Part shown: positions 1 to 10,457 of the stretch, one piece after another | Numbering within the stretch: the stretch's first letter is position 1 | How the letters are laid out: the number at the start of each line of letters is the position of its first letter | NCBI GenBank assembly: GCA_937900875.1 | Contig: CALCGD010000249.1 | Span: 9,977 to 73,976, forward strand | Length of the DNA: 64,000 nt | Source of the DNA: an uncultured Flavobacteriales bacterium | Lineage (GTDB): Bacteria; Bacteroidota; Bacteroidia; UBA10329 | Reading direction: 5' to 3' | The notes under the pieces: model-generated | Databases searched by the model: none | Seen by the model: only the letters and a program-made list of their open reading frames with translations | What the model was told of the DNA's origin: nothing | Position numbers and translations under genes: made by a program

Positions 1-118
1 GAATCTGAATATCTGAGCACGGAATCTTATCTGATTCGCGTGCGCTGAACGCCAAAGAGATAAACAGCCCAACAACGGCAACAACGAGGAATGATATGTT
101 TAGAATCTTCCTAATCAT
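1..118 (-). CDS. ftsQ: cell division protein FtsQ, N-terminal part only (gene runs off the window start)
   Basis: Minus-strand ATG at 118..116 overlaps the murC stop (ATGA). Translation is MIRKILNISFLVVAVVGLFISLAFSARESDKIPCSDIQI: a short cytoplasmic N-terminus followed by one TM helix, typical of FtsQ. It occupies the expected position after murC in the dcw order. Too short to appear in the ORF track. Confidence 0.5.
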   Translation of the reverse strand, partial: MIRKILNISFLVVAVVGLFISLAFSARESDKIPCSDIQI

Positions 119-1479
119 AATCCAAGTTTGTGTTTGATTGGTGCAACTAATTGGTCGATATCGCCAGCGCCCATGGTCAGCAGCACGTCTACATTATCTA
201 TAGAAATGTCTTCAACAGCCGCAGTTTTGGAAACCAATTCTTTGGATGGAGCGTTGATTTGGCTGAGTAGAACAGAGGAAGTGATTCCAGGCATTGGTTC
301 TTCTCTAGCTGGATAGATGTCTAGCAGAGTCACTTCGTCTAGTTCGCTTAAGCTTGAAGCGAATTCGGTCATGTGATCTTTGGTGCGGCTAAACAAGTGT
401 GGCTGAAAAATGCCTTTCACTTTACGTCCAGGAAAAAGTTCTCGAACAGAGTTTACGCAAGCAGAAATTTCTGTTGGATGATGCGCGTAGTCGTCAATGT
501 ATACGAGTTTATCTGTGTTGATGTGAACGTCAAATCTGCGTTTAACACCCTTGTATGAAGCAAAACCATTTCTGATTTCAGCATCTGATAACCCAAGTTG
601 GTCTACCGCTGCGAAAGCTGCTACAGCATTTTCAAGGTTATGCATTCCAGGCATTCCGAAAGTCAAATCGCTAATGGTTCGGGTAGGTGCGTGCATGCTG
701 AAAGTATACTTCCCGTCCACCACAGATAAATTGGAAGCGTGGTAATCGCTTTTTTCTTGTAGGGAGTAGGTGAAACTCTTTCTAGATGTGTCTGAGAAAG
801 GAAGCCCAGCGCGATATATGAGCGTTCCGTTTTCGGAGATACAGTTTGTGAAATCATGAAAGGATTTCAGCATTTCATCTGCCGATCCGTAAATGTCCAA
901 GTGATCTGCATCTACAGATGTTACGATGGCAATATTTGGAGTAAGCGTAAGGAAAGAACGGTCAAATTCATCCGCTTCAACCACCATCAGGTTGCTACTT
1001 GTGGAAGTGAGTAAGTTGGTGTTGTAATTTGATGAAATGCCACCTAAGAATGCGTTGCAGTCTTGCGATGATGACTTAAGCAAATGAGCTACGATAGAAC
1101 TGGTGGTTGTTTTACCATGCGTACCAGCAACTGCTACTGTATTGTAGCTTCTGGAAAGAGCGCCCAAAACTTCTGATCGCTTAAGAACCTCGAATTTGTT
1201 TGCTTGAAAATAGGCTAGCTCATTAAGTGCTTTAACCGCTGGTGTGTAAATAACAAGCGTGTTTTCAGGGTTTTTGAAAGTATCAGAAATTTCAACCGTA
1301 CTGTCGCTATAATGAATGTTAATGCCAGATGATTCTAACTCTTTGGTAAGCTCCGTTTGGGTACGGTCGTAGCCTGCCACTGCCTTGCCTTGTACGGCAA
1401 AGTAGCGCGCCAAAGCGCTCATGCCGATGCCACCAATGCCAATTAGGTAAACAGCTTGTATGTGTCCTAAATCTCTCAT
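115..1479 (-). CDS. murC: UDP-N-acetylmuramate--L-alanine ligase
   Basis: 454 aa; N-terminal GIGGIGMSALA nucleotide-binding motif and Mur ligase central GTHGKTTTS P-loop; position in the dcw cluster. Confidence 0.92.
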   Translation of the reverse strand: MRDLGHIQAVYLIGIGGIGMSALARYFAVQGKAVAGYDRTQTELTKELESSGINIHYSDSTVEISDTFKNPENTLVIYTPAVKALNELAYFQANKFEVLKRSEVLGALSRSYNTVAVAGTHGKTTTSSIVAHLLKSSSQDCNAFLGGISSNYNTNLLTSTSSNLMVVEADEFDRSFLTLTPNIAIVTSVDADHLDIYGSADEMLKSFHDFTNCISENGTLIYRAGLPFSDTSRKSFTYSLQEKSDYHASNLSVVDGKYTFSMHAPTRTISDLTFGMPGMHNLENAVAAFAAVDQLGLSDAEIRNGFASYKGVKRRFDVHINTDKLVYIDDYAHHPTEISACVNSVRELFPGRKVKGIFQPHLFSRTKDHMTEFASSLSELDEVTLLDIYPAREEPMPGITSSVLLSQINAPSKELVSKTAAVEDISIDNVDVLLTMGAGDIDQLVAPIKHKLGL

Positions 1480-2606
1480 GCTACTTTGGCGAGTTTTAGG
1501 ATTTCCTGCGCGATTTCCGCATCGGCATTGGGTAACGCAAGCGTCTTAATATTGGTGCTTAGAGTTGCCCTTTTTTCATCGTTTGACAGAAGGTTTAAGG
1601 CCTCTTCACAGGCTTTTGAACCAGCTTCTTTGTCAGTCACAAGTATTGCTGCGTTTACATCAACCAATGCTTGTGCATTTTTAGTTTGATGGTCTTCGGC
1701 TGCAAAAGGAAATGGCACTAGAACGGCAGGTTTGCCTACAATACATAATTCTGAAATAGAACTAGCCCCAGCCCGCGACAGCACGACATCTGCCACGGCA
1801 TAGGCTTGGTCCATTGTGTAGATGAAGTCAGACACGTAGAAGTTTGAAGCATTCGCTTCCGCAACCGCCTTTTTTGCTTCGTCAATAAAAAGCTTTCCTG
1901 TTTGCCAAACTACCTGCACATTGGCATCCATAAAGGTATTGATGTTGGCTTTTAAAGCCAAGTTCATGGATCTCGCTCCTAGACTTCCGCCAATTACTAG
2001 AAGCGTCTTTTTAGTTGGGTCAAGCTTGAAGGTCTTCATTCCTTCATCGCGCTTTCCATTCAAATTCAGAATGTCTTGTCTCACAGGGTTTCCAGTTCGA
2101 AGAATGTTCTGACTAGGGAAAAACTTGTCCATGCCATCGTATGCGACACACACTTTCTTAGCTCTAGCTCCCAATATTTTATTGGTAATGCCAGCGTATG
2201 AGTTTTGTTCTTGAATTACGGTTGGAATACCAGCAAGTCCAGCCGCGTACATAACAGGGCCGCTTGCAAAGCCACCAACACCAACCACCACATTTGGTTT
2301 GAATGACCGGATGATTTTGCCAGATTTCAGCAAGCTTCCAATCAAACGGAATGGAAAGGCCAAATTCTTGAGCATATTACTGCGGTTTATGCCTGAAATA
2401 TTGAGCCCAATAATTTCATAGCCAGCAGCAGGAACTTTTTCCATTTCCATTTTACCGATTGCGCCAACAAACAGAATTTCAATGTCTGACTGAATATTCT
2501 TCAGTGCGTTTGCAATAGCAATGGCTGGAAAGATGTGTCCACCAGTTCCGCCTCCAGATATGATAACCTTAACCTTAGACATGAGCGACTTCAGGTTTAG
2601 GTCCAT
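1476..2606 (-). CDS. murG: undecaprenyldiphospho-muramoylpentapeptide beta-N-acetylglucosaminyltransferase
   Basis: 376 aa; ISGGGTGGHIFPAIAIA N-terminal motif typical of MurG (GT28); dcw position. The true start may be the internal Met (MSKVKV), which shortens the overlap with ftsW. Confidence 0.9.
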   Translation of the reverse strand: MDLNLKSLMSKVKVIISGGGTGGHIFPAIAIANALKNIQSDIEILFVGAIGKMEMEKVPAAGYEIIGLNISGINRSNMLKNLAFPFRLIGSLLKSGKIIRSFKPNVVVGVGGFASGPVMYAAGLAGIPTVIQEQNSYAGITNKILGARAKKVCVAYDGMDKFFPSQNILRTGNPVRQDILNLNGKRDEGMKTFKLDPTKKTLLVIGGSLGARSMNLALKANINTFMDANVQVVWQTGKLFIDEAKKAVAEANASNFYVSDFIYTMDQAYAVADVVLSRAGASSISELCIVGKPAVLVPFPFAAEDHQTKNAQALVDVNAAILVTDKEAGSKACEEALNLLSNDEKRATLSTNIKTLALPNADAEIAQEILKLAKVA

Positions 2607-3750
2607 CTTTTAGCGAGCGACTTACGCTCAAAATCATTCCAATGGCGATGGAGGTGAACCAAATAGAGGTTCCTCCCATACTTAATAGTGGTAGCGGCTG
2701 ACCAGTTACAGGAAACAAGTTGACAGCAACGGCCATGTTTATGAATGCCTGAAAAATAAGGCTGAACATGCAGCCAAATGCCAATAATGTACCAAAGGGC
2801 GATGTGCCTTTGTGAACGATTCGCAGTCCGCGAAAGAGGAGAATGAGGTAGAGAAACAGGATTCCGAATCCTCCCACCATTCCCCATTCTTCTATGATTA
2901 TGGCGTAAATAAAATCTGCGTACGCACTCGGCAATCGATTTCGCTGAACACTATTTCCGGGTCCAACACCGGTGATTCCGCCTTGCGCTATGGCAATTTT
3001 TGCTTGCTCCGTTTGGTAGTTAGCGTCTGCGGTTTCAGCAGTTTCTTCATTATTAAAATAGGTTTCGATACGGGCTTTCCAGGTGCCAAAACGAGGTAGT
3101 ACTTTTTCTATGGGAACGGCATATGAAAGCAAGAACACGAAGGCTCCTGCCAGAATAATGCTTCCAACCAAACCAGTGATGTACAACAGCTTGACTCTCC
3201 CAATAAATAGGACAACCAATGAGGTTGCAAATAGAACCGCAGATGTGGAGAAGTTGGCGGGCAAAATAAGGGCGCAGACTAATAGTACTGGCCAAATGAG
3301 ATGCAAGAATCCGTCTTTAAAATCAGACATTGAATCTTGTCTTTTTGATAACTGCCGAGCCAGATATGCGATAAGTGCAAGTTTGGCTAAATCGGAAGTT
3401 TGGAACGACATATTAATGATTGGTACCGTGAGCCATCTAGAAGCTTGGTTTACGGACGTGCCAGAAATAAGGGTAATTGCAAGGAGAGGTATGGATACCC
3501 AAATAAGTATTTGGGCTATCCTAGAAAAATAGGTGTAAGGCACTTTATGTACGGTATAAATAATACCCCAACCCATCAAAATGATAGCCATGTGCTTCAT
3601 TAGATAGAACTCGGTATTGCCGCCTTGTTTGGCGTAAGCCAGATTGTTGGTTGCGCTGTATACCGCCATCATAGAAACGAGCGATAGCAAGAATACCACG
3701 GCCCAAATGACCATGTCTCCTTGTAGATATTTGCGCACCAATTGGTTCAC
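2575..3750 (-). CDS. ftsW: SEDS-family peptidoglycan glycosyltransferase FtsW
   Basis: 391 aa polytopic membrane protein of the FtsW/RodA family; located between murD and murG. Confidence 0.88.
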   Translation of the reverse strand: MNQLVRKYLQGDMVIWAVVFLLSLVSMMAVYSATNNLAYAKQGGNTEFYLMKHMAIILMGWGIIYTVHKVPYTYFSRIAQILIWVSIPLLAITLISGTSVNQASRWLTVPIINMSFQTSDLAKLALIAYLARQLSKRQDSMSDFKDGFLHLIWPVLLVCALILPANFSTSAVLFATSLVVLFIGRVKLLYITGLVGSIILAGAFVFLLSYAVPIEKVLPRFGTWKARIETYFNNEETAETADANYQTEQAKIAIAQGGITGVGPGNSVQRNRLPSAYADFIYAIIIEEWGMVGGFGILFLYLILLFRGLRIVHKGTSPFGTLLAFGCMFSLIFQAFINMAVAVNLFPVTGQPLPLLSMGGTSIWFTSIAIGMILSVSRSLKDGPKPEVAHV

Positions 3751-3751
3751 C

Positions 3752-4297
3752 TTATTTTTTGTCTAGTAGGTTTTTAACTGCCTTTGTAAACTGGTTTCCT
3801 CGGTCTTCGTAGCTCTCGAATAAATCGTGGCTAGAGCAAGCTGGGGAAAGAATGACTTTGTCTCCTGGTTGAGCAAGAGCGATGGCCGCTTTAACAGCTT
3901 CTTCTGCGGTACTAGCCCCAACAATTACATCAGCAAAACTCATGAAGGTTTTAAACACGCTGCTATTCTCTCTGCCTAGGCAAACGATGCCTCTCACTTT
4001 ATCTGCAACCAATTCTTTCAGCATTCCGTAGTCCTGTCCGTCTTGTAATCCGCCTACTATCCAAACTGCAGTTCCTTGCAGCCTTTCTAGCGAATACCAA
4101 GTGAGGTCAACGTTGATGGCTTTAGAGTCATTGATAAATTCAATGTTGTTCCATTCGCCAATTAGCTCTTGACGATGTCTGGTGCTTTGCACATCAGACA
4201 CACTTTCTTCAAGAATTTGCTTTCTTAACTCCAACAGGCTATTGAACATTTTCTGTTCTTCGGTCTGCACCTCGTTATTCCAAGTTTTATTTTTCAT
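3752..4297 (-). CDS. stand-alone Mur-ligase C-terminal domain protein (diverged tandem partial copy of the murD 3' end)
   Basis: 181-aa ORF that aligns colinearly with the last ~160 residues of the adjacent MurD (4317..5651). Examples: FINDSKAINVDLTWYSLE vs FINDSKATNINSTWYALE; VWIVGG; SAEEAVKAA; LSPACSSHDLFESYEDRG vs LSPACASFDLFENYEDRG. Roughly half of aligned residues are identical by eye. Intact reading frame with its own start. Confidence 0.5.
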   Translation of the reverse strand: MKNKTWNNEVQTEEQKMFNSLLELRKQILEESVSDVQSTRHRQELIGEWNNIEFINDSKAINVDLTWYSLERLQGTAVWIVGGLQDGQDYGMLKELVADKVRGIVCLGRENSSVFKTFMSFADVIVGASTAEEAVKAAIALAQPGDKVILSPACSSHDLFESYEDRGNQFTKAVKNLLDKK

Positions 4298-4316
4298 TGG
4301 GTAATAGGTTTATGGT

Positions 4317-5651
4317 TTAAAGCGACTTTACAGCAGCCTTGAATTTTCTACCTCGGTCTTCATAATTCTCAAACAGGTCGAAGCTTGCACACGCAGGTGA
4401 AAGCAGGACGGCATCTCCTTTCTTTCCTATGTAGTAAGCTGCTTTTACGGCCTCTTCCGCACTCGATGTGTCCACTATTGTCTCAACTATGCCTTCAAAG
4501 GCTTTGTGGATTTTTTCGTTGTCGGTGCCTAAGCAGATAATCGCCTTCACTTTGTCTTTTACCAAATCGGCCACAATGGAGTAGTCATTTCCTTTATCAA
4601 CCCCACCTACAATCCAAACCACAGGCTGGTTTTGGCATTCTAGCGCATACCAAGTGGAGTTAATATTTGTGGCTTTGCTATCGTTAATGAAATCGATGCC
4701 ATGAACTTTTCCGATGTTTTCTAATCGGTGCTCAACGGCACTAAAATCGCTTAAGCTTTCTCTTACGAGGTCTTTGCGCAGTTCTAACAATCGACCAACA
4801 ATTCCAGATGCCATAGAATTGTATGTGTTGTGTTTGCCCTGCAGTGCTAGTTTGTGAATGGACATGTTGAAGTTTGTGTTATTGAGGTTTATGTTGAGAT
4901 TATTTTGGTCTGTGTAGGCTCCCTCTGCTACAGTATCGGTAAGTGAGAAAGGATATTTTTTGGCAGCATAGCCACCTGAATTGAGTGCATTTTTGATGTT
5001 TTCATCTTCTGCACAAAAGATGAGTGCATCGTCTGAAGTTTGGTTTTGAGCAATGCGCATTTTAGATGCGATGTAGGCATCCATTCCAGCGTATCGATCA
5101 AGATGATCAGGTGTGATATTGAGAAGTACAGCAATGTTTATTCTGCTGTCAATCATTCCGTCAAGCTGAAAACTGCTTAGCTCTAAAACCAGATAGTCGA
5201 ACTCTTGATCGGCCACTTGCCAAGCAAGGCTTTTACCCACATTGCCAGCTAACCCAACGTTTAGCCCTGCTTTGGTAAGCATGTGATGAGTAAGTAGCGT
5301 AGTTGTAGTCTTACCGTTTGTGCCTGTTATTCCTATAGTTTTAGCGTTGGTGTACTTCAGCCCAAATTCGATTTCAGAAACAACAGGAACACCTTTTCCG
5401 CGAAGCGATTGAACGAGCGGAGCAGATTCAGGAATTCCTGGACTTTTAATAACCAAATCTGCATTCAGAATTTTCTCTTCTGTATGCTTGCCTTCCTCAT
5501 AGTCAATCTTCCAATTTTCTAGGTTTTTGGCATACTTGTCCTTCAGCTTTCCTTTGTCAGAAAGGAAAACATCATATCCCTTTTTCAGACCCAGATAAGC
5601 TGCGCCCGTACCGCTTTCGCCTCCACCCAATATGACCAGTCTTTCTGCCAT
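4317..5651 (-). CDS. murD: UDP-N-acetylmuramoylalanine--D-glutamate ligase
   Basis: 444 aa; N-terminal ILGGGESGTGAAYLGLKKGYDVFLSD Rossmann motif, [10 protein letters not shown]-loop and Mur ligase C-terminal domain; dcw position. Confidence 0.92.
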   Translation of the reverse strand: MAERLVILGGGESGTGAAYLGLKKGYDVFLSDKGKLKDKYAKNLENWKIDYEEGKHTEEKILNADLVIKSPGIPESAPLVQSLRGKGVPVVSEIEFGLKYTNAKTIGITGTNGKTTTTLLTHHMLTKAGLNVGLAGNVGKSLAWQVADQEFDYLVLELSSFQLDGMIDSRINIAVLLNITPDHLDRYAGMDAYIASKMRIAQNQTSDDALIFCAEDENIKNALNSGGYAAKKYPFSLTDTVAEGAYTDQNNLNINLNNTNFNMSIHKLALQGKHNTYNSMASGIVGRLLELRKDLVRESLSDFSAVEHRLENIGKVHGIDFINDSKATNINSTWYALECQNQPVVWIVGGVDKGNDYSIVADLVKDKVKAIICLGTDNEKIHKAFEGIVETIVDTSSAEEAVKAAYYIGKKGDAVLLSPACASFDLFENYEDRGRKFKAAVKSL

Positions 5652-6901
5652 TATCTGAGTTTGAGCGTTACAATTGTGAGCACGGCTAGCATTAATCCTA
5701 CAATCCAGAAGCGACCAACAATTTTGGCCTCATGCATTCCTTTTTTCTGGAAATGATGATGTAGCGGAGACATTAGGAAAATTCTTCTTCCTTCTCCGAA
5801 TTTCTTCTTGGTGTATTTGAAATAGCTAACCTGCATTACAACAGATAGATTTTCCATTAGGAATACACCACACAGAATAGGTATGAGTAATTCTTTACGA
5901 ATTGCAAGTGCGAAAACTGCGATAATTCCACCCAAAGCGAGGCTACCCGTGTCGCCCATAAACACTTGAGCAGGGTACTGATTGTACCACAAGAACCCCA
6001 CGCAAGCACCGATAAAAGCGGATATAAAAACCACCAGTTCGCCCGAACCTGGGATGTACATTATATTGAGGTAATCGGCAAAAATGATATTGCCCGATAC
6101 ATAAGCAAACACGGCAAGGGTAACGCCAATAATGGCAGAAGTTCCAGTTGCTAATCCGTCTAATCCATCCGTAAGATTTGCCCCGTTGGACACAGCTGTT
6201 ACAATGAAAATGACGATGGGAATAAAGATTAACCAACTCCAATCTTTGGCATTGTCTCCAAGGAAACCCAAGAGTGAACTGTAGTCAAATTCGTTATTCT
6301 TGAAGAAAGGAATAGTAGTAACCAGTGAATGTTCCGCTTCGCCATAAACAGGGGTTGTCTGACCTGTAACTGTTCTGCCATCTACCACCGCTTCTATAGT
6401 GGTTCCTCCGCTTGCCAGTCGTTCTTTAACCGCTACGTTTTCATTGAAGTATAGGGTGCACGCTACGATTATACCAATGCCAACTTGTCCCATTACCTTG
6501 AACTTTCCAGCTAGACCCTCTTTGTCTTTTTTAAAGACCTTGATGTAGTCGTCTATAAAACCAATGGTGCCCAACCAAATGGTCGAAACAATCATGAGAA
6601 TTACATAAACGTTGTGCAGTTGGGCAAATAGAAGGGTAGGTATTAGGATGGAAGAAAGGATGATAATCCCTCCCATTGTTGGTGTTCCTTGCTTCTGAAT
6701 TTGACCTGCCAAGTCTAGGTCTCTTACGATTTCGCCAACCTGCTTTAATTGCAGGTACTCAATTACTTTTTTGCCGATAATCATAGAGCAGATAAGCGAT
6801 GTAATTACGCTAGCTGCAGCACGGAATGAGATGTATTGGAACACTCCTGCGCCTGGCAGGTGATAATGAGTTTCTAAGAAATCGAACAGATAGTATAGCA
6901 T
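5651..6901 (-). CDS. mraY: phospho-N-acetylmuramoyl-pentapeptide transferase
   Basis: 416 aa polytopic membrane protein of the MraY/WecA family (DGLDGLA motif); dcw position. Confidence 0.9.
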
Positions 6902-8361
6902 TAGCAGATCTGTTTTAGGTTGGTAGAAAGCACTTCCATGTCATCAAAAGCGAACTTTTCACCTTTTATCTCTTGGTATTTCTCATGTCCTTTTCCTGCA
7001 ACTAGAATGATGTCACCGGGCTGAACCATTAAGCAAGCTGTGCGGATGGCTTCTGCTCTATCCACGATGCTCACCGCTTTACGCCCAAGCACGGGGTCAA
7101 GCCCTTTTTTCATATCTGCCAGAATTGCTTCTGGTTCTTCGCTTCGAGGATTGTCGGAGGTTAGGATTACCTTATCAGAACCTTCAGCTGCAATACGAGC
7201 CATTTCTGGTCGCTTGGCTTTATCCCTGTCTCCACCACAACCAACTATTGTAATGAGTTTTTCGTTTCCGGTTCTTAATTCGTGTATGGTAGAAAGCACA
7301 TTTTCTAGCGCGTCAGGTGTGTGAGCATAGTCCACAATACCGAGCACGTTATTCTCTGTTTTTATAAACTGAAACCGTCCTTCTGGAGAATGAAGATTAC
7401 TCAGGGTAGTTAGTATCTGAAGCTTCTCTTCCTTAAGCTCGATGGCTGCGCCATAAACGCTTAGAATGTTGTAGGCGTTAAACGAACCAATCAGTCTTGT
7501 GATTACCTCCTGACCGTCAATATTCAGAATGAGTCCAGTTAAGTTGTTTTCCAAGATTTTGGCCTTTCTATCTGCCATGGATTTCAGTCCGTAGCTAATA
7601 ACCTTTGCCTTGGTGTTTTGCACCATTACTTCCCCGTTTCTGTCGTCTAGGTTTACAAGCGCAAATGCGGTTGATGGAAGCTGATCGAACAACATTTTCT
7701 TCGATTTGATGTAATGGTCGAAGTTTCCGTGATAGTCGAGATGATCGTGGGTGATGTTTGTGAAAATGGCACCTGTAAATTCAAGACCTGCTACGCGATG
7801 CTGGTCAAGAGCATGTGAGCTAACCTCCATGAAGCAGAATTCACAACCTGCTTTCACCATTTCGGCTAAAAGGTTGTTGAGACTTATTGGGTCAGGAGTA
7901 GTGTGCGTTGCCTTTACTTCAGTTTCATTAATGAGATTTCTTACGGTAGAAATGAGACCAACTTTGTAGCCCAATCCTTGGAATAATTCGTAAAGAAGAG
8001 TGGCAGTAGTAGTCTTTCCGTTAGTACCCGTAATGCCAATTAACTTTAGGTTTTCCGATGGGTTGTCGTAAAAATTTGAGGCGATAATACCAGCTGCAAA
8101 TCTGCTGTTCTTTACTTGAATGTAGTTGACTTCTGCAATTTGTGCCTCAGGAATTTGTTCGCAAACAATTGCTTGCGACCCTTGCTTAATTGCTTGGTCT
8201 ATGTAATCATGACCATCAACCACATTGCCTCTAACTGCAATAAAAAGAGAGAATTTTTTAGCCTGACGAGAATCAATACAGATGTTTTCAATCGCAACAT
8301 TTGTTGACCCCAAAACCTCATCGATTCCTGCTCTGTATAATATGTCTTTTAGCAGTTTCAT
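6901..8361 (-). CDS. murE: UDP-N-acetylmuramoyl-L-alanyl-D-glutamate--2,6-diaminopimelate ligase
   Basis: 486 aa Mur ligase ([13 protein letters not shown]-loop); dcw position between ftsI and mraY. Confidence 0.9.
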
Positions 8362-10457
8362 AAAAGATGTATTGTGATTTCACGACCAACTGTAGCTCTA
8401 GTGCCAGGGATTATTGATTGCTGCCTAACCACGCCAGACCCTATCATATTTACTTTGAGGCGTGCATTTTCGAGCAAGAACAGCGCGTCCATTGCGCCCA
8501 TTCCAACAACTCTGGGCACCAAATTTTCAATCACTTCTCTCTCTGTTATCTCAACTGAATCTGAGAAGGATTGAGCTACAGCCCATTTTGCATCTGGGTC
8601 TTTCACCTCAACTTGTATGTTTAGTTTCTTGAATGCCGTAACTAAGTCCGCCTTTTCGCTCACTTTAGAAACAGGGATTAAGCTGTTTGCTAATGCTGGG
8701 TCGGTAGTTACTTCTTCGTGCATTTTGATTTGCGTAGAGTAGACCTTATCAGAAATTTCCTTGAAAATTGGGCCGGCTACTAAGTTGCCGTAGTAAACAG
8801 AACTGGTAGGTGAATCGATCACCACAATACAAGTGTATCGAGGTTTCTCTGCTGGGAAATATCCAACGAATGAAGCTTGATACGTCTTGTCTCGTTGGTA
8901 ATTCCCGTCTTTGGCAATCTGAGCCGTTCCTGTCTTACCAGCAATCTTGTAGTTTGCGTGCTTCAAGTTGCTAGCTGTTCCATGGTCAACAACTCCTTCA
9001 AGCAATACTTTCAGATTGTCGATGGTGCTTTGAGAACATATTTTGTCCTGAATGACAACGGTTGGAAATTCCTTTTCGATTTTACCGCGCTTCTTGATGG
9101 CCTGCACCATTTTTGGTTTAACCATTTTGCCATTGTTGGCCACAGCGTTATAAAGCGTCAGAATTTGTAAAGGAGTTTGGAGTACTTCATATCCAATACT
9201 CATCCAAGGCAATGAGATGCCAGACCAAGCAGCGTCATCTGGCGAAGCTATCGATGGCTTTCCCTCTCCTTTGATTTCAAGTCCAAGAGGTTGGTCCAGT
9301 TTCATTGCTTTCAACCTTTTTACAAATTGCGCTGGATTTTCTCTGTAATACTGATTTACCAACTTTGAAATACCAACGTTAGATGAGATTTCAAATGCTT
9401 TGGCCACTGTTATTTTATTGTAAACGCCCGTTTTTGAGTCGCGCATTGTGCGATCGTAGAATTTCTTGATGCCACCTTCTATGTCTACCGAGTCCGTAAG
9501 GTCTACATGACCATCTTCCAGTAGGCAAAGCATGCTTGCCAACTTGAAGGTTGAGCCAGGTTCGGTTGGAGACCCAATTGCGTAATTGTAAGTCTCGGCA
9601 TAGGTTCCATTTTCTTGAACTGTGAGGTTGGCGATGGCCTTAATGTTGCCAGTTTCAACCTCCATTAAGACCGCGCAGCCATGATGGGCTCCATGCTTTT
9701 CTAATTGAGTAAGTAACGCATGTTCGGCAACGTCTTGAATGTTAATATCAATAGTTGTGATAAGGTCAGAACCATCTTCTGGTTCAACTTCATTCACATC
9801 ATTAAGTGGTTTTAGGTTTCCTCCAGCAATTTTTTGCATCAGCCGTTTCCCAACTACACCAGATAGTTCTTTTGAATATGCCCCTTCTAAGCCAACTCGA
9901 TAATCTTCTCTGTCATAGCCAATTGTTCTTGAAGCCAATTGTTTAAATGGTTTGGCTCTTTTGTTTCGCTGATGAATGATTAAGCCACCACCGTATCGCC
10001 CTTTATTGAAAATTTCAAATTCACGGAGCGCCTTAAGTTGTTTGTAGTCAACTTTTCGTTTTATAAGATGGTATTGACTCTCGTTATTCCTGGCCTGCGT
10101 TAATTCTCTTGCATAAACTGTAGATGATTTGTCTTGAAATAGTCTAGCCATCTGCTGCGAAAGCTTGCCAATATGCTCATTGAAATACTCATCGGATAAG
10201 GATGGTATGGCAGCATCCCATCGCACCTCGTAAATAGGTTTTGATGTGGCCAAAAGACTACCGTCTGAAGCGAAAATATTACCTCTAACTGCCTCGATAG
10301 TGATGAAAGAGGTGGTTTGAGTTTCAGCTTTTGATTTCCACTTTTCACCTTCTAAAAACTGAATTTGCGCGACTCTGGCAACAATGGAAAGCGCAAAAAC
10401 GCACATCAAGCCATAGGCTAGATATACTCGTGTTTTTATTTGCTTTTCGTGGCTCAC
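8358..10457 (-). CDS. ftsI: penicillin-binding protein (class B transpeptidase, FtsI/PBP3-like)
   Basis: 699 aa; N-terminal TM anchor, PBP dimerisation domain and transpeptidase motifs (STFK, SSN, KTGT); dcw position. Confidence 0.88.
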   Translation of the reverse strand: MSHEKQIKTRVYLAYGLMCVFALSIVARVAQIQFLEGEKWKSKAETQTTSFITIEAVRGNIFASDGSLLATSKPIYEVRWDAAIPSLSDEYFNEHIGKLSQQMARLFQDKSSTVYARELTQARNNESQYHLIKRKVDYKQLKALREFEIFNKGRYGGGLIIHQRNKRAKPFKQLASRTIGYDREDYRVGLEGAYSKELSGVVGKRLMQKIAGGNLKPLNDVNEVEPEDGSDLITTIDINIQDVAEHALLTQLEKHGAHHGCAVLMEVETGNIKAIANLTVQENGTYAETYNYAIGSPTEPGSTFKLASMLCLLEDGHVDLTDSVDIEGGIKKFYDRTMRDSKTGVYNKITVAKAFEISSNVGISKLVNQYYRENPAQFVKRLKAMKLDQPLGLEIKGEGKPSIASPDDAAWSGISLPWMSIGYEVLQTPLQILTLYNAVANNGKMVKPKMVQAIKKRGKIEKEFPTVVIQDKICSQSTIDNLKVLLEGVVDHGTASNLKHANYKIAGKTGTAQIAKDGNYQRDKTYQASFVGYFPAEKPRYTCIVVIDSPTSSVYYGNLVAGPIFKEISDKVYSTQIKMHEEVTTDPALANSLIPVSKVSEKADLVTAFKKLNIQVEVKDPDAKWAVAQSFSDSVEITEREVIENLVPRVVGMGAMDALFLLENARLKVNMIGSGVVRQQSIIPGTRATVGREITIHLL

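Follow-up and report, generated by a model that had tools for sequence, protein, structure and literature searches.

The 64,000-nucleotide stretch analysed here (hereafter the window) comes from an uncultured Flavobacteriales bacterium (GenBank assembly GCA_937900875.1, contig CALCGD010000249.1, positions 9,977 to 73,976 of the forward strand), and its division and cell wall (dcw) gene cluster contains an open reading frame (ORF) of 181 amino acids, ORF181, wedged between murD and ftsW. Few gene clusters of bacteria are as conserved or as much studied as the dcw cluster. We find that ORF181 is a genuine coding gene whose product is a stand-alone MurD C-terminal domain together with the linker helix that precedes it, and that it belongs to a family of stand-alone MurD-C-like proteins, called SA below, whose conserved genomic partner is ftsW. 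The SA gene goes back to an ancient event in a lineage of Flavobacteriales/Bacteroidia, in which the 3′ end of murD alone was duplicated in tandem; the copy has since passed down by vertical descent in its place between murD and ftsW, and purifying selection holds it about as strongly as its essential neighbours. Its product is probably unable to act as a ligase, and we tentatively consider it a non-catalytic partner of FtsW.

An earlier note on this DNA had described an ORF between murD and ftsW that resembles the C-terminal part of the adjacent MurD, with about half of its positions identical, and our alignments confirm this. In BLASTP, residues 7–177 of ORF181 align with residues 274–444 of the neighbouring MurD without gaps, with 85 of 171 positions identical (50%) and 67% positives (E=1e-58), and the ORF list gives the gene an ATG start and an intact frame on the minus strand. 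Pfam finds only Mur_ligase_C (PF02875) in ORF181, at 39.2 bits against a cutoff of 28.4, over residues 41–154 and the complete profile (positions 1–127 of 127), whereas the adjacent MurD carries MurD_N, Mur_ligase_M and Mur_ligase_C. The NCBIfam murD model (TIGR01087) scores 134.7 bits, below its cutoff of 211.95, and matches at profile positions 287–440 only. ORF181 is thus a Mur_ligase_C protein by both score and domain-3 fold (below), and it lacks the three-domain architecture of MurD, which consists of a UDP-binding N domain, a P-loop ATPase M domain and the C domain.

The AlphaFold2 model of ORF181, built from 80 aligned sequences, has a mean predicted local distance difference test score (pLDDT) of 85.8, and the core formed by residues 41–154 exceeds 90. 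When this model was compared by Foldseek with the Protein Data Bank (PDB), the top 33 matches were all MurD domain 3, with query-normalised TM scores of 0.59–0.72; the best of them, for example 7u35, superimposes with a root-mean-square deviation (rmsd) of 1.6 Å over 141 columns at 37% identity. ORF181 therefore shares with MurD domain 3 the Rossmann-like fold (rmsd 1.6–2.4 Å), and it is 50% identical to its neighbour and about 37% identical to the MurD proteins of E. coli and P. aeruginosa. The Mur-ligase C-domain fold is also common to MurT (of MurT/GatD), FolC and Mpl, which Foldseek detects at E values of about 1e-4 to 1e-3, but those proteins are active enzymes with a central ATPase domain, and ORF181 is far closer to MurD. 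The description of ORF181 in the earlier note as the C-terminal domain only stands in so far as Pfam, the fold and the absence of the N and ATPase domains support it, but it does not hold for the first 40 or so residues, which are linker helix or unmatched sequence outside the C-domain proper. Residues 1–12 have no MurD counterpart, and the helix at residues 13–34, modelled with lower confidence, corresponds to the last helix of the MurD central domain plus the linker; a second delimitation sets the matching segment at about residues 18–40 and the unmatched one at residues 1–17. This N-terminal helix is conserved across the SA family, with R25 and I28 invariant.

We compared 78 SA proteins with 49 MurD C-domains column by column and tabulated their motifs. 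At the position of E. coli MurD K348, a D-Glu ligand (the D-Glu-binding residues of domain 3 are T321, K348, S415, L416 and F422), lysine is present in 49/49 MurD proteins and in none of the 78 SA proteins, where the residue is most often Asp (24), Glu (19) or Ala (9), and also Asn or Thr. The loop GGVDKGNDY, invariant in Bacteroidota MurD, reads GGLQDGQDY in ORF181, with D86 at the position of the lysine. At the other D-Glu positions ORF181 has I61 in place of T321 (Thr is kept in 55/78 SA proteins) and H157 in place of L416, and it keeps the equivalents of S415 and F422; further systematic switches in SA are N to D (D64), A to S (S69), D to E (E110) and F to H (H157). Core SA proteins nevertheless show hardly any variation in the motifs HR-E, NDS(K)A and LSPAC-S-D-F-Y-DRG (HR-E, NDSKA and SPACAS-D-F-Y-DRG in ORF181), which in MurD lie on the domain 3 face that closes over the active site and take part in binding of ATP and D-Glu.

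UDP-MurNAc-L-Ala is bound by MurD domains 1 and 2. Since ORF181 lacks these two domains, and with them the UDP-sugar and ATP/P-loop sites, and since its D-Glu-binding lysine is replaced, as it is by Asp, Glu and other residues throughout the SA family, ORF181 should not be able to function as a ligase; judged from its sequence, ligase activity of this protein alone is implausible without a P-loop domain. The same two features, the replacement of the K348 equivalent in every SA member and the absence of domains 1 and 2, disfavour the proposal in the earlier note that the protein competes for D-Glu or UDP-MurNAc-L-Ala. The MurD encoded next to the extra gene is canonical in every such genome according to the motif table, and the SA protein therefore does not compensate for a defective enzyme. 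Public entries P0002, P0003, P0346 and others call SA proteins of about 180 amino acids "UDP-N-acetylmuramoylalanine--D-glutamate ligase"; because such proteins lack two of the three domains and miss the NCBIfam cutoff, these names are annotation errors.

We define SA family members as proteins of about 165–200 amino acids that contain Mur_ligase_C only, are encoded directly upstream of ftsW, have a residue other than Lys at the K348 equivalent and carry the Asp that ends FINDSKAxNxD. ORF181 has all of these features and sits within the core clade. A search of 5.8 billion proteins with ORF181 returned 349 matches, and the best 77 clusters are 170–207 amino acids long; their identity is 49–88% with ORF181 and does not exceed about 54% with the MurD C-domain. 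In a 32-sequence SA alignment, whose members range from 87% down to 48% identity to ORF181, 30 positions are invariant. Comparison of dcw clusters across relatives places the extra ORF at the same position: the order murD-SA-ftsW is found in L004/L005, L006, L007, L011–L013, L014, L094 and L097/L098. No disrupted SA copy was found among the relatives examined, and every member with readable surroundings is an intact ORF. Most named Bacteroidota that were sampled (Pedobacter, Tenacibaculum, Polaribacter, Flavobacterium, Chitinophagaceae and Bacteroidales) have no extra gene, and ftsW begins no more than 200 nt after murD in 68 of the 86 loci that hold both genes, a sample biased by the way in which it was collected. 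A scan of a genome collection gave mostly ordinary MurD genes; among the matches listed, the informative relatives were L014–L017, L019, L020, L022, L026, L039, L066, L077 and L082, a set that does not give an unbiased frequency.

Selection on the SA gene was measured as the ratio of the proportions of nonsynonymous (pN) and synonymous (pS) differences; a true dN/dS is out of reach for this gene, since pS is 0.78–0.88 in all pairs and lies above the Jukes-Cantor limit. Between the window and L094, the closest ortholog for which DNA is available (87% amino acid identity), the SA gene has a pN of 0.075 and a pS of 0.83, and the corresponding values are 0.094 and 0.655 for murD and 0.122 and 0.767 for ftsW. 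The resulting pN/pS of about 0.09 shows that the SA gene is under purifying selection of the same order as its essential neighbours. It does evolve faster than the cognate MurD C-domain, by a factor of about 1.1–1.9: along the relatives its dN is 0.079, 0.113, 0.268, 0.313 and 0.376, against 0.070, 0.078, 0.172, 0.228 and 0.200 for the MurD C-domain.

A neighbour-joining, distance-based tree of 122 sequences with 100 bootstraps makes the core SA proteins monophyletic in 80/100 replicates and places them outside the cluster of all Bacteroidota MurD C-domains. Branching within core SA matches that of the cognate MurD proteins, with the window joined to L004, followed by L006, L007, and L011+L014. 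A derived acidic residue replaces the Asn that ends the MurD motif FINDSKATNxN in most members of the SA groups, L022 and L026 being without it. Monophyly, a topology that mirrors MurD, the shared N to D change and the saturated divergence from the paralog (below) together argue for a single ancient origin. This conserved positional family, its low pN/pS and its monophyletic clade strongly support one of the two options in the earlier note, that ORF181 is a new stand-alone Mur-ligase-domain protein, and they show it to be under purifying selection.

The SA gene lies directly upstream of ftsW in every locus examined, with spacers of 1–25 nt, or 110 nt in L008. One core clade has the SA gene outside the dcw cluster with no murD nearby, and ftsW is still directly downstream. 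Two such neighbourhoods were found, Ferritin-Hpt-SA-FtsW-PD40 (L002, L095, L096) and sigma70...SA-FtsW-OEP, with a divergent gene upstream (L008–L010). FtsW proteins from these non-dcw loci score against the FtsW of the window much as similarly diverged dcw orthologs do, with 435–445 bits against 451–500. The SA proteins encoded there carry the derived characters of the family, the missing lysine and the terminal Asp, and therefore are not independent truncations of murD. The conserved partner of the SA gene is ftsW, not murD; this was absent from the earlier note and is the most informative of the facts added to it.

Natural MurD-FtsW chimeras, proteins whose MurD part is covalently attached through its C-domain to the N-terminus of FtsW, occur in Proteobacteria and Actinobacteria (PMC10214165). 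The SA loci resemble them in that a MurD C-domain is encoded directly upstream of FtsW in all those examined, and the arrangement suggests a functional or physical association of the MurD C-domain with the cytoplasmic N-terminus of FtsW. They differ in that ORF181 is a separate polypeptide in another frame, 1 nt away from ftsW, and is an extra, catalytically incompetent copy beside a complete MurD, whereas the chimeras hold a whole active MurD. No SA-FtsW fusion was found among the best 150 representatives of a profile search, in which clustering at 50% identity left about one SA representative and the others were MurD or fragments. Two proteins, P0124 (379 amino acids) and P0173 (319 amino acids), are MurD-C-like, keep the lysine of the "DKGN" loop and have C-terminal extensions of about 170 amino acids unrelated to FtsW; perhaps they represent further architectures with a stand-alone or re-fused Mur-ligase C-domain.

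Other metagenome-assembled genomes (MAGs) of Flavobacteriales/Bacteroidia have diverged MurD-C-like ORFs in the same slot, which we place in group B (L015–L017) and group C (L019, L020, L022, L026, L077). Group B keeps K/R in the D-Glu loop and has lost the equivalents of R302, D317 and K319, and group C loses more. The group B genes are at L015:8496-9041, L016:8504-9073 and L017:8498-9070, with P0130 as a further example, and their HR and NDSK residues are lost (HNFE, and INHSAS or INNSAS), which is the reverse of the motif loss in the family of the window. Different branches have therefore discarded different catalytic residues.

The most diverged occupants of the slot carry no recognisable motif. 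The gap between murD and ftsW holds an ORF of 153–201 amino acids in L039 (Fluviicola), L066 (a Crocinitomicaceae MAG) and L082, the Fluviicola/Crocinitomicaceae protein being 153–160 (about 155) amino acids long, and a scan of these ORFs with Pfam and NCBIfam gave no match. Their family, 75 clusters in size, goes under the annotation "hypothetical". A direct profile comparison between core SA and this Fluviicola-type family was not significant (E 0.015–0.036); the group C profile, however, aligns with it end to end over 149 columns with a probability of 94% (E=1.4e-7). The AlphaFold2 model of the Fluviicola type (pLDDT 86.5) has the same order of secondary structure elements as ORF181, and the PDB entries that match it best are nearly all Mur-ligase C-domains (3mvn with a TM score of 0.69; MurC, MurD, MurE and FolC). 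Thus the slot, the secondary-structure order, the fold and homology through intermediates are shared with ORF181, but the MurD ligand-binding motifs are all erased (GMDVFxW stands in place of FINDSKA, and LLFT in place of LSPAC) and the direct profile of ORF181 does not detect the family. With its homology to SA resting on the intermediate group C profile and on the fold, the Fluviicola/Crocinitomicaceae protein seems to belong to the SA family as a completely degenerate form. Since a motif-free form occupies the same slot, a function shared across the superfamily needs none of the MurD ligand-binding residues.

What might such a protein do? The reading that we prefer, and to which we give slightly less than an even chance, is that the SA protein has no catalytic role and instead assists or regulates, either together with FtsW or as a bridge between the divisome and the Mur-ligase assembly. 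It would be a pseudoenzyme domain, co-transcribed and translationally coupled with ftsW, and in the cytoplasm it would probably serve FtsW, the polymerase of septal peptidoglycan, as a regulator or an accessory subunit; alternatively, it may be an adaptor that links the divisome to the Mur-ligase assembly. The SA-FtsW arrangement would then parallel the natural MurD-FtsW fusions of other phyla. Because the former active-site face is invariant in core SA, a residual ligand-binding or docking function is plausible there, and because that face has been erased in the diverged branches, the role common to all members is probably a structural one.

Several observations weigh against this picture. 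The link to FtsW is one of genomic context, that is, of gene order alone, and the separation of the SA gene from murD is seen in one clade only and reflects one or two rearrangement events. In genomes that lack the SA gene, murD and ftsW are coupled just as tightly, and the close spacing is therefore a property of the operon and not of SA. Comparison of FtsW from SA-containing and SA-lacking genomes revealed no distinguishing sequence feature, only three weakly discriminating columns that are confounded by phylogeny. Core SA keeps the ATP- and D-Glu-contacting residues of MurD at 100% conservation, beyond what a pure scaffold would need, and such conservation fits ligand binding, or docking onto the central domain of a Mur ligase, at least as well. 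Finally, the tree is a neighbour-joining distance tree in which the basal position of SA may be a long-branch effect of its faster rate, and all SA groups are jointly monophyletic in only 38% of bootstraps.

The conservation of the active-site face speaks for a different possibility, which we rate as unlikely: that the SA protein is a trans partner of MurD or another Mur ligase and sits on the central ATPase domain, where it replaces or joins the domain 3 of the enzyme itself. It might then regulate domain closure by competition, or supply a different specificity so that another amino acid is added. Core SA is invariant exactly at the residues that face the MurD active site and central domain (HR-E, NDS(K)A, SPAC-S-D-F-Y-DRG), the linker helix ELRK-I-ES-SD is kept as well, and the D-Glu pocket has been specifically remodelled (K to D/E, F to H and, in some members, T to I). 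The SA gene adjoins murD in most genomes, and Mur ligases have been reported to interact through their central domains (PMC10214165). On the other hand, MurD's own domain 3 is intact and covalently attached, and would out-compete a domain offered in trans; the SA genes of L002/L095 and L008 lie away from murD and still with ftsW; and the diverged branches and the Fluviicola type have lost the interface and ligand residues although the gene is retained.

A further proposal starts from the fact that a scaffold model leaves the conservation of the core SA active-site face unexplained. The SA protein might be a divisome or cell-wall pseudoenzyme that binds the cytoplasmic face of FtsW, and its core form might sense a metabolite through the remodelled pocket; this, too, we consider speculative and rather improbable. 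Candidate ligands would be an adenine nucleotide, for instance, or a precursor of the stem peptide with a basic group to fit the new acidic residue. If this proposal is correct, polymerisation of septal peptidoglycan would be coupled to precursor supply, and the erasure of the pocket down to the Fluviicola form would record the passage from an enzyme domain to a pure structural subunit.

We think it doubtful that the SA protein is a free binder of small molecules, a sensor or buffer of a nucleotide or peptidoglycan precursor that acts independently of contact with FtsW or MurD. The enzyme-like conservation of the pocket residues in core SA would be as expected for such a protein, and the switch from lysine to an acidic residue suggests a changed ligand, not a lost one. 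The ATP and UDP-sugar sites of MurD are formed mainly by domains 1 and 2, however, so that domain 3 offers only a partial pocket; moreover, group B, group C and the Fluviicola type erase that pocket, and the strict linkage to ftsW would be left unexplained.

The remaining alternatives deny the SA protein a function or the gene its reality, and the age of the duplication bears on both. At the DNA level ORF181 is 53.6% identical to the murD 3′ end, with 57, 71 and 32% identity at codon positions 1, 2 and 3 and a longest identical run of 11 nt, and the pair has a pN of 0.35 and a saturated pS of 0.88; the similarity is therefore one of protein sequence only. ORF181 is accordingly the diverged and uninterrupted copy that the earlier note had described, but a recent relic of a tandem duplication, one form of that note's other option, is excluded by the age and conservation of the family and the saturated divergence of the paralogs. 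That ORF181 is a decaying murD fragment, or an ORF kept merely for translational coupling to ftsW with its protein sequence irrelevant, is very improbable: it sits in an operon context in which such coupling is common, and it evolves faster than the cognate MurD C-domain, but this explanation is effectively refuted by a pN/pS of about 0.09 with saturated synonymous sites, a length steady at about 180 amino acids, the 30 invariant positions, the absence of disrupted copies among the relatives examined and the confident predicted fold.

The exact 181-amino acid protein is recorded on 21 contigs from four sources (NCBI, JGI, Logan and ENA), under the titles "hypothetical protein", "glutamate ligase domain-containing protein" or "UDP-N-acetylmuramoylalanine--D-glutamate ligase"; it is present in the marine Tara data as well. 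An assembly or binning artefact that fused murD ends from two organisms deserves almost no credence, and although the window is probably from a metagenome-derived genome, where chimeric contigs occur, it is refuted by the recurrence of the murD-SA-ftsW order across many independent assemblies and sources, by an SA clade that matches no organism's MurD (no more than 54% identity to any MurD C-domain examined) and by the precise ends of ORF181, whose start and stop codons lie 19 nt and 1 nt from its neighbours. The assembly duplication that the earlier note had kept in mind is likewise ruled out by the nucleotide comparison with the murD 3′ end and by the 21 contigs.

The locus itself is laid out in Table 1. 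A dcw cluster of the Bacteroidota type takes up the first 10.5 kb of the window; it lies on the minus strand and has the order ftsI-murE-mraY-murD-ORF181-ftsW-murG-murC. The DNA of this bacterium has a G+C content of 41%. The TAA of ORF181 occupies 3752-3754 and ftsW starts at 3750 in another frame. Joining of murD and ORF181 by read-through or frameshifting was considered and ruled out, as the frames differ and the spacer varies from about 19 to 138 nt among relatives. A scan for promoter-like or terminator-like signals between murD, ORF181 and ftsW found none above shuffled expectation, and scans of the whole 64-kb window gave no Rfam match at gathering thresholds and no tRNA gene. At one other locus, L086:8465-11231, the dcw order is unusual, murD-mraY-murE-ftsW, the usual order being murE-mraY-murD-ftsW.

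Table 1. Coordinates of ORF181, its parts and its neighbours in the window, and of the motif-free ORFs at other loci.
Feature	Position	Strand	Basis
ORF181, SA protein, 181 aa (stop codon included)	3752..4297	-	ORF list, BLASTP, Pfam, 77 orthologous clusters, pN/pS ~0.09
Mur_ligase_C match (residues 41-154), Rossmann-like domain 3 core	3836..4177	-	Pfam; AlphaFold2 pLDDT >90; Foldseek
N-terminal helix (residues 13-34)	4196..4261	-	AlphaFold2 secondary structure, pLDDT 66-70; column conservation
D86 codon, equivalent of the MurD D-Glu-binding lysine (K353 of the neighbour)	4040..4042	-	column comparison, motif table
19-nt spacer, murD stop to ORF181 start	4298..4316	-	sequence; murD and ORF181 in different reading frames
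murD, 444 aa; N, M and C domains, catalytic motifs all intact	4317..5651	-	Pfam, motif table
murD 3′ part paralogous to ORF181 (residues 274-444 + stop)	4317..4832	-	BLASTP, tblastn, DNA alignment
ftsW, SEDS peptidoglycan polymerase, 391 aa, GTG start	2575..3750	-	ORF list; SA-ftsW adjacency in every locus
ftsI	8358-10457	-	ORF list
murE	6901-8361	-	ORF list
mraY	5651-6901	-	ORF list
murG	1476-2606	-	ORF list
murC	115-1479	-	ORF list
Motif-free ORF, Fluviicola	L039:631-1098		between murD and ftsW
Motif-free ORF, Crocinitomicaceae MAG	L066:8477-8938		between murD and ftsW
Motif-free ORF, L082	L082:2046-2528		between murD and ftsW

Some short MurD-like proteins in the databases lie outside the SA family. 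P0078-P0120 (about 165–313 amino acids, most of them 165 or 182) were considered as members and rejected as ordinary MurD fragments, being 56–88% identical to the MurD C-domain and only 42–50% identical to ORF181. At L001:5206-6549 (CP121331.1, a 2.87-Mb genome) murD has a single in-frame stop after residue 222, which yields ORFs of 222 and 182 amino acids; either this essential gene carries a nonsense mutation or has become a pseudogene, or the stop is a sequencing error. Many "MurD" entries in the databases are exactly 182 or 165 amino acids long, and P0087 starts at a conserved internal Met; these entries look like fragments similar to those of L001.

In the literature searched we met with no account of a MurD C-domain paralog that stands alone, nor of an additional gene in the murD-ftsW interval of Bacteroidota, although absence there is no proof. 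The domain family and the fold are known; as far as we can tell, a stand-alone, ftsW-linked, catalytically dead paralog family has not been described. To our knowledge, the regulation of FtsW-type polymerases from the cytoplasmic side is poorly known outside model Proteobacteria and Firmicutes, and Bacteroidota, so far as we are aware, do without several of the classical divisome regulators. That the dcw cluster holds an additional gene, kept by selection and always found with ftsW, points to machinery specific to this lineage around the polymerase of septal peptidoglycan. For Fluviicola and Crocinitomicaceae, the orphan "hypothetical protein" family gains a fold and an origin, and since this is a culturable group, the hypothesis can be tested experimentally. 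The SA family also offers a dated case of the passage from enzyme to pseudoenzyme, in which a domain of an essential enzyme has become stand-alone, its branches have lost different catalytic residues and one of them has lost all, with the intermediate stages preserved in living lineages.

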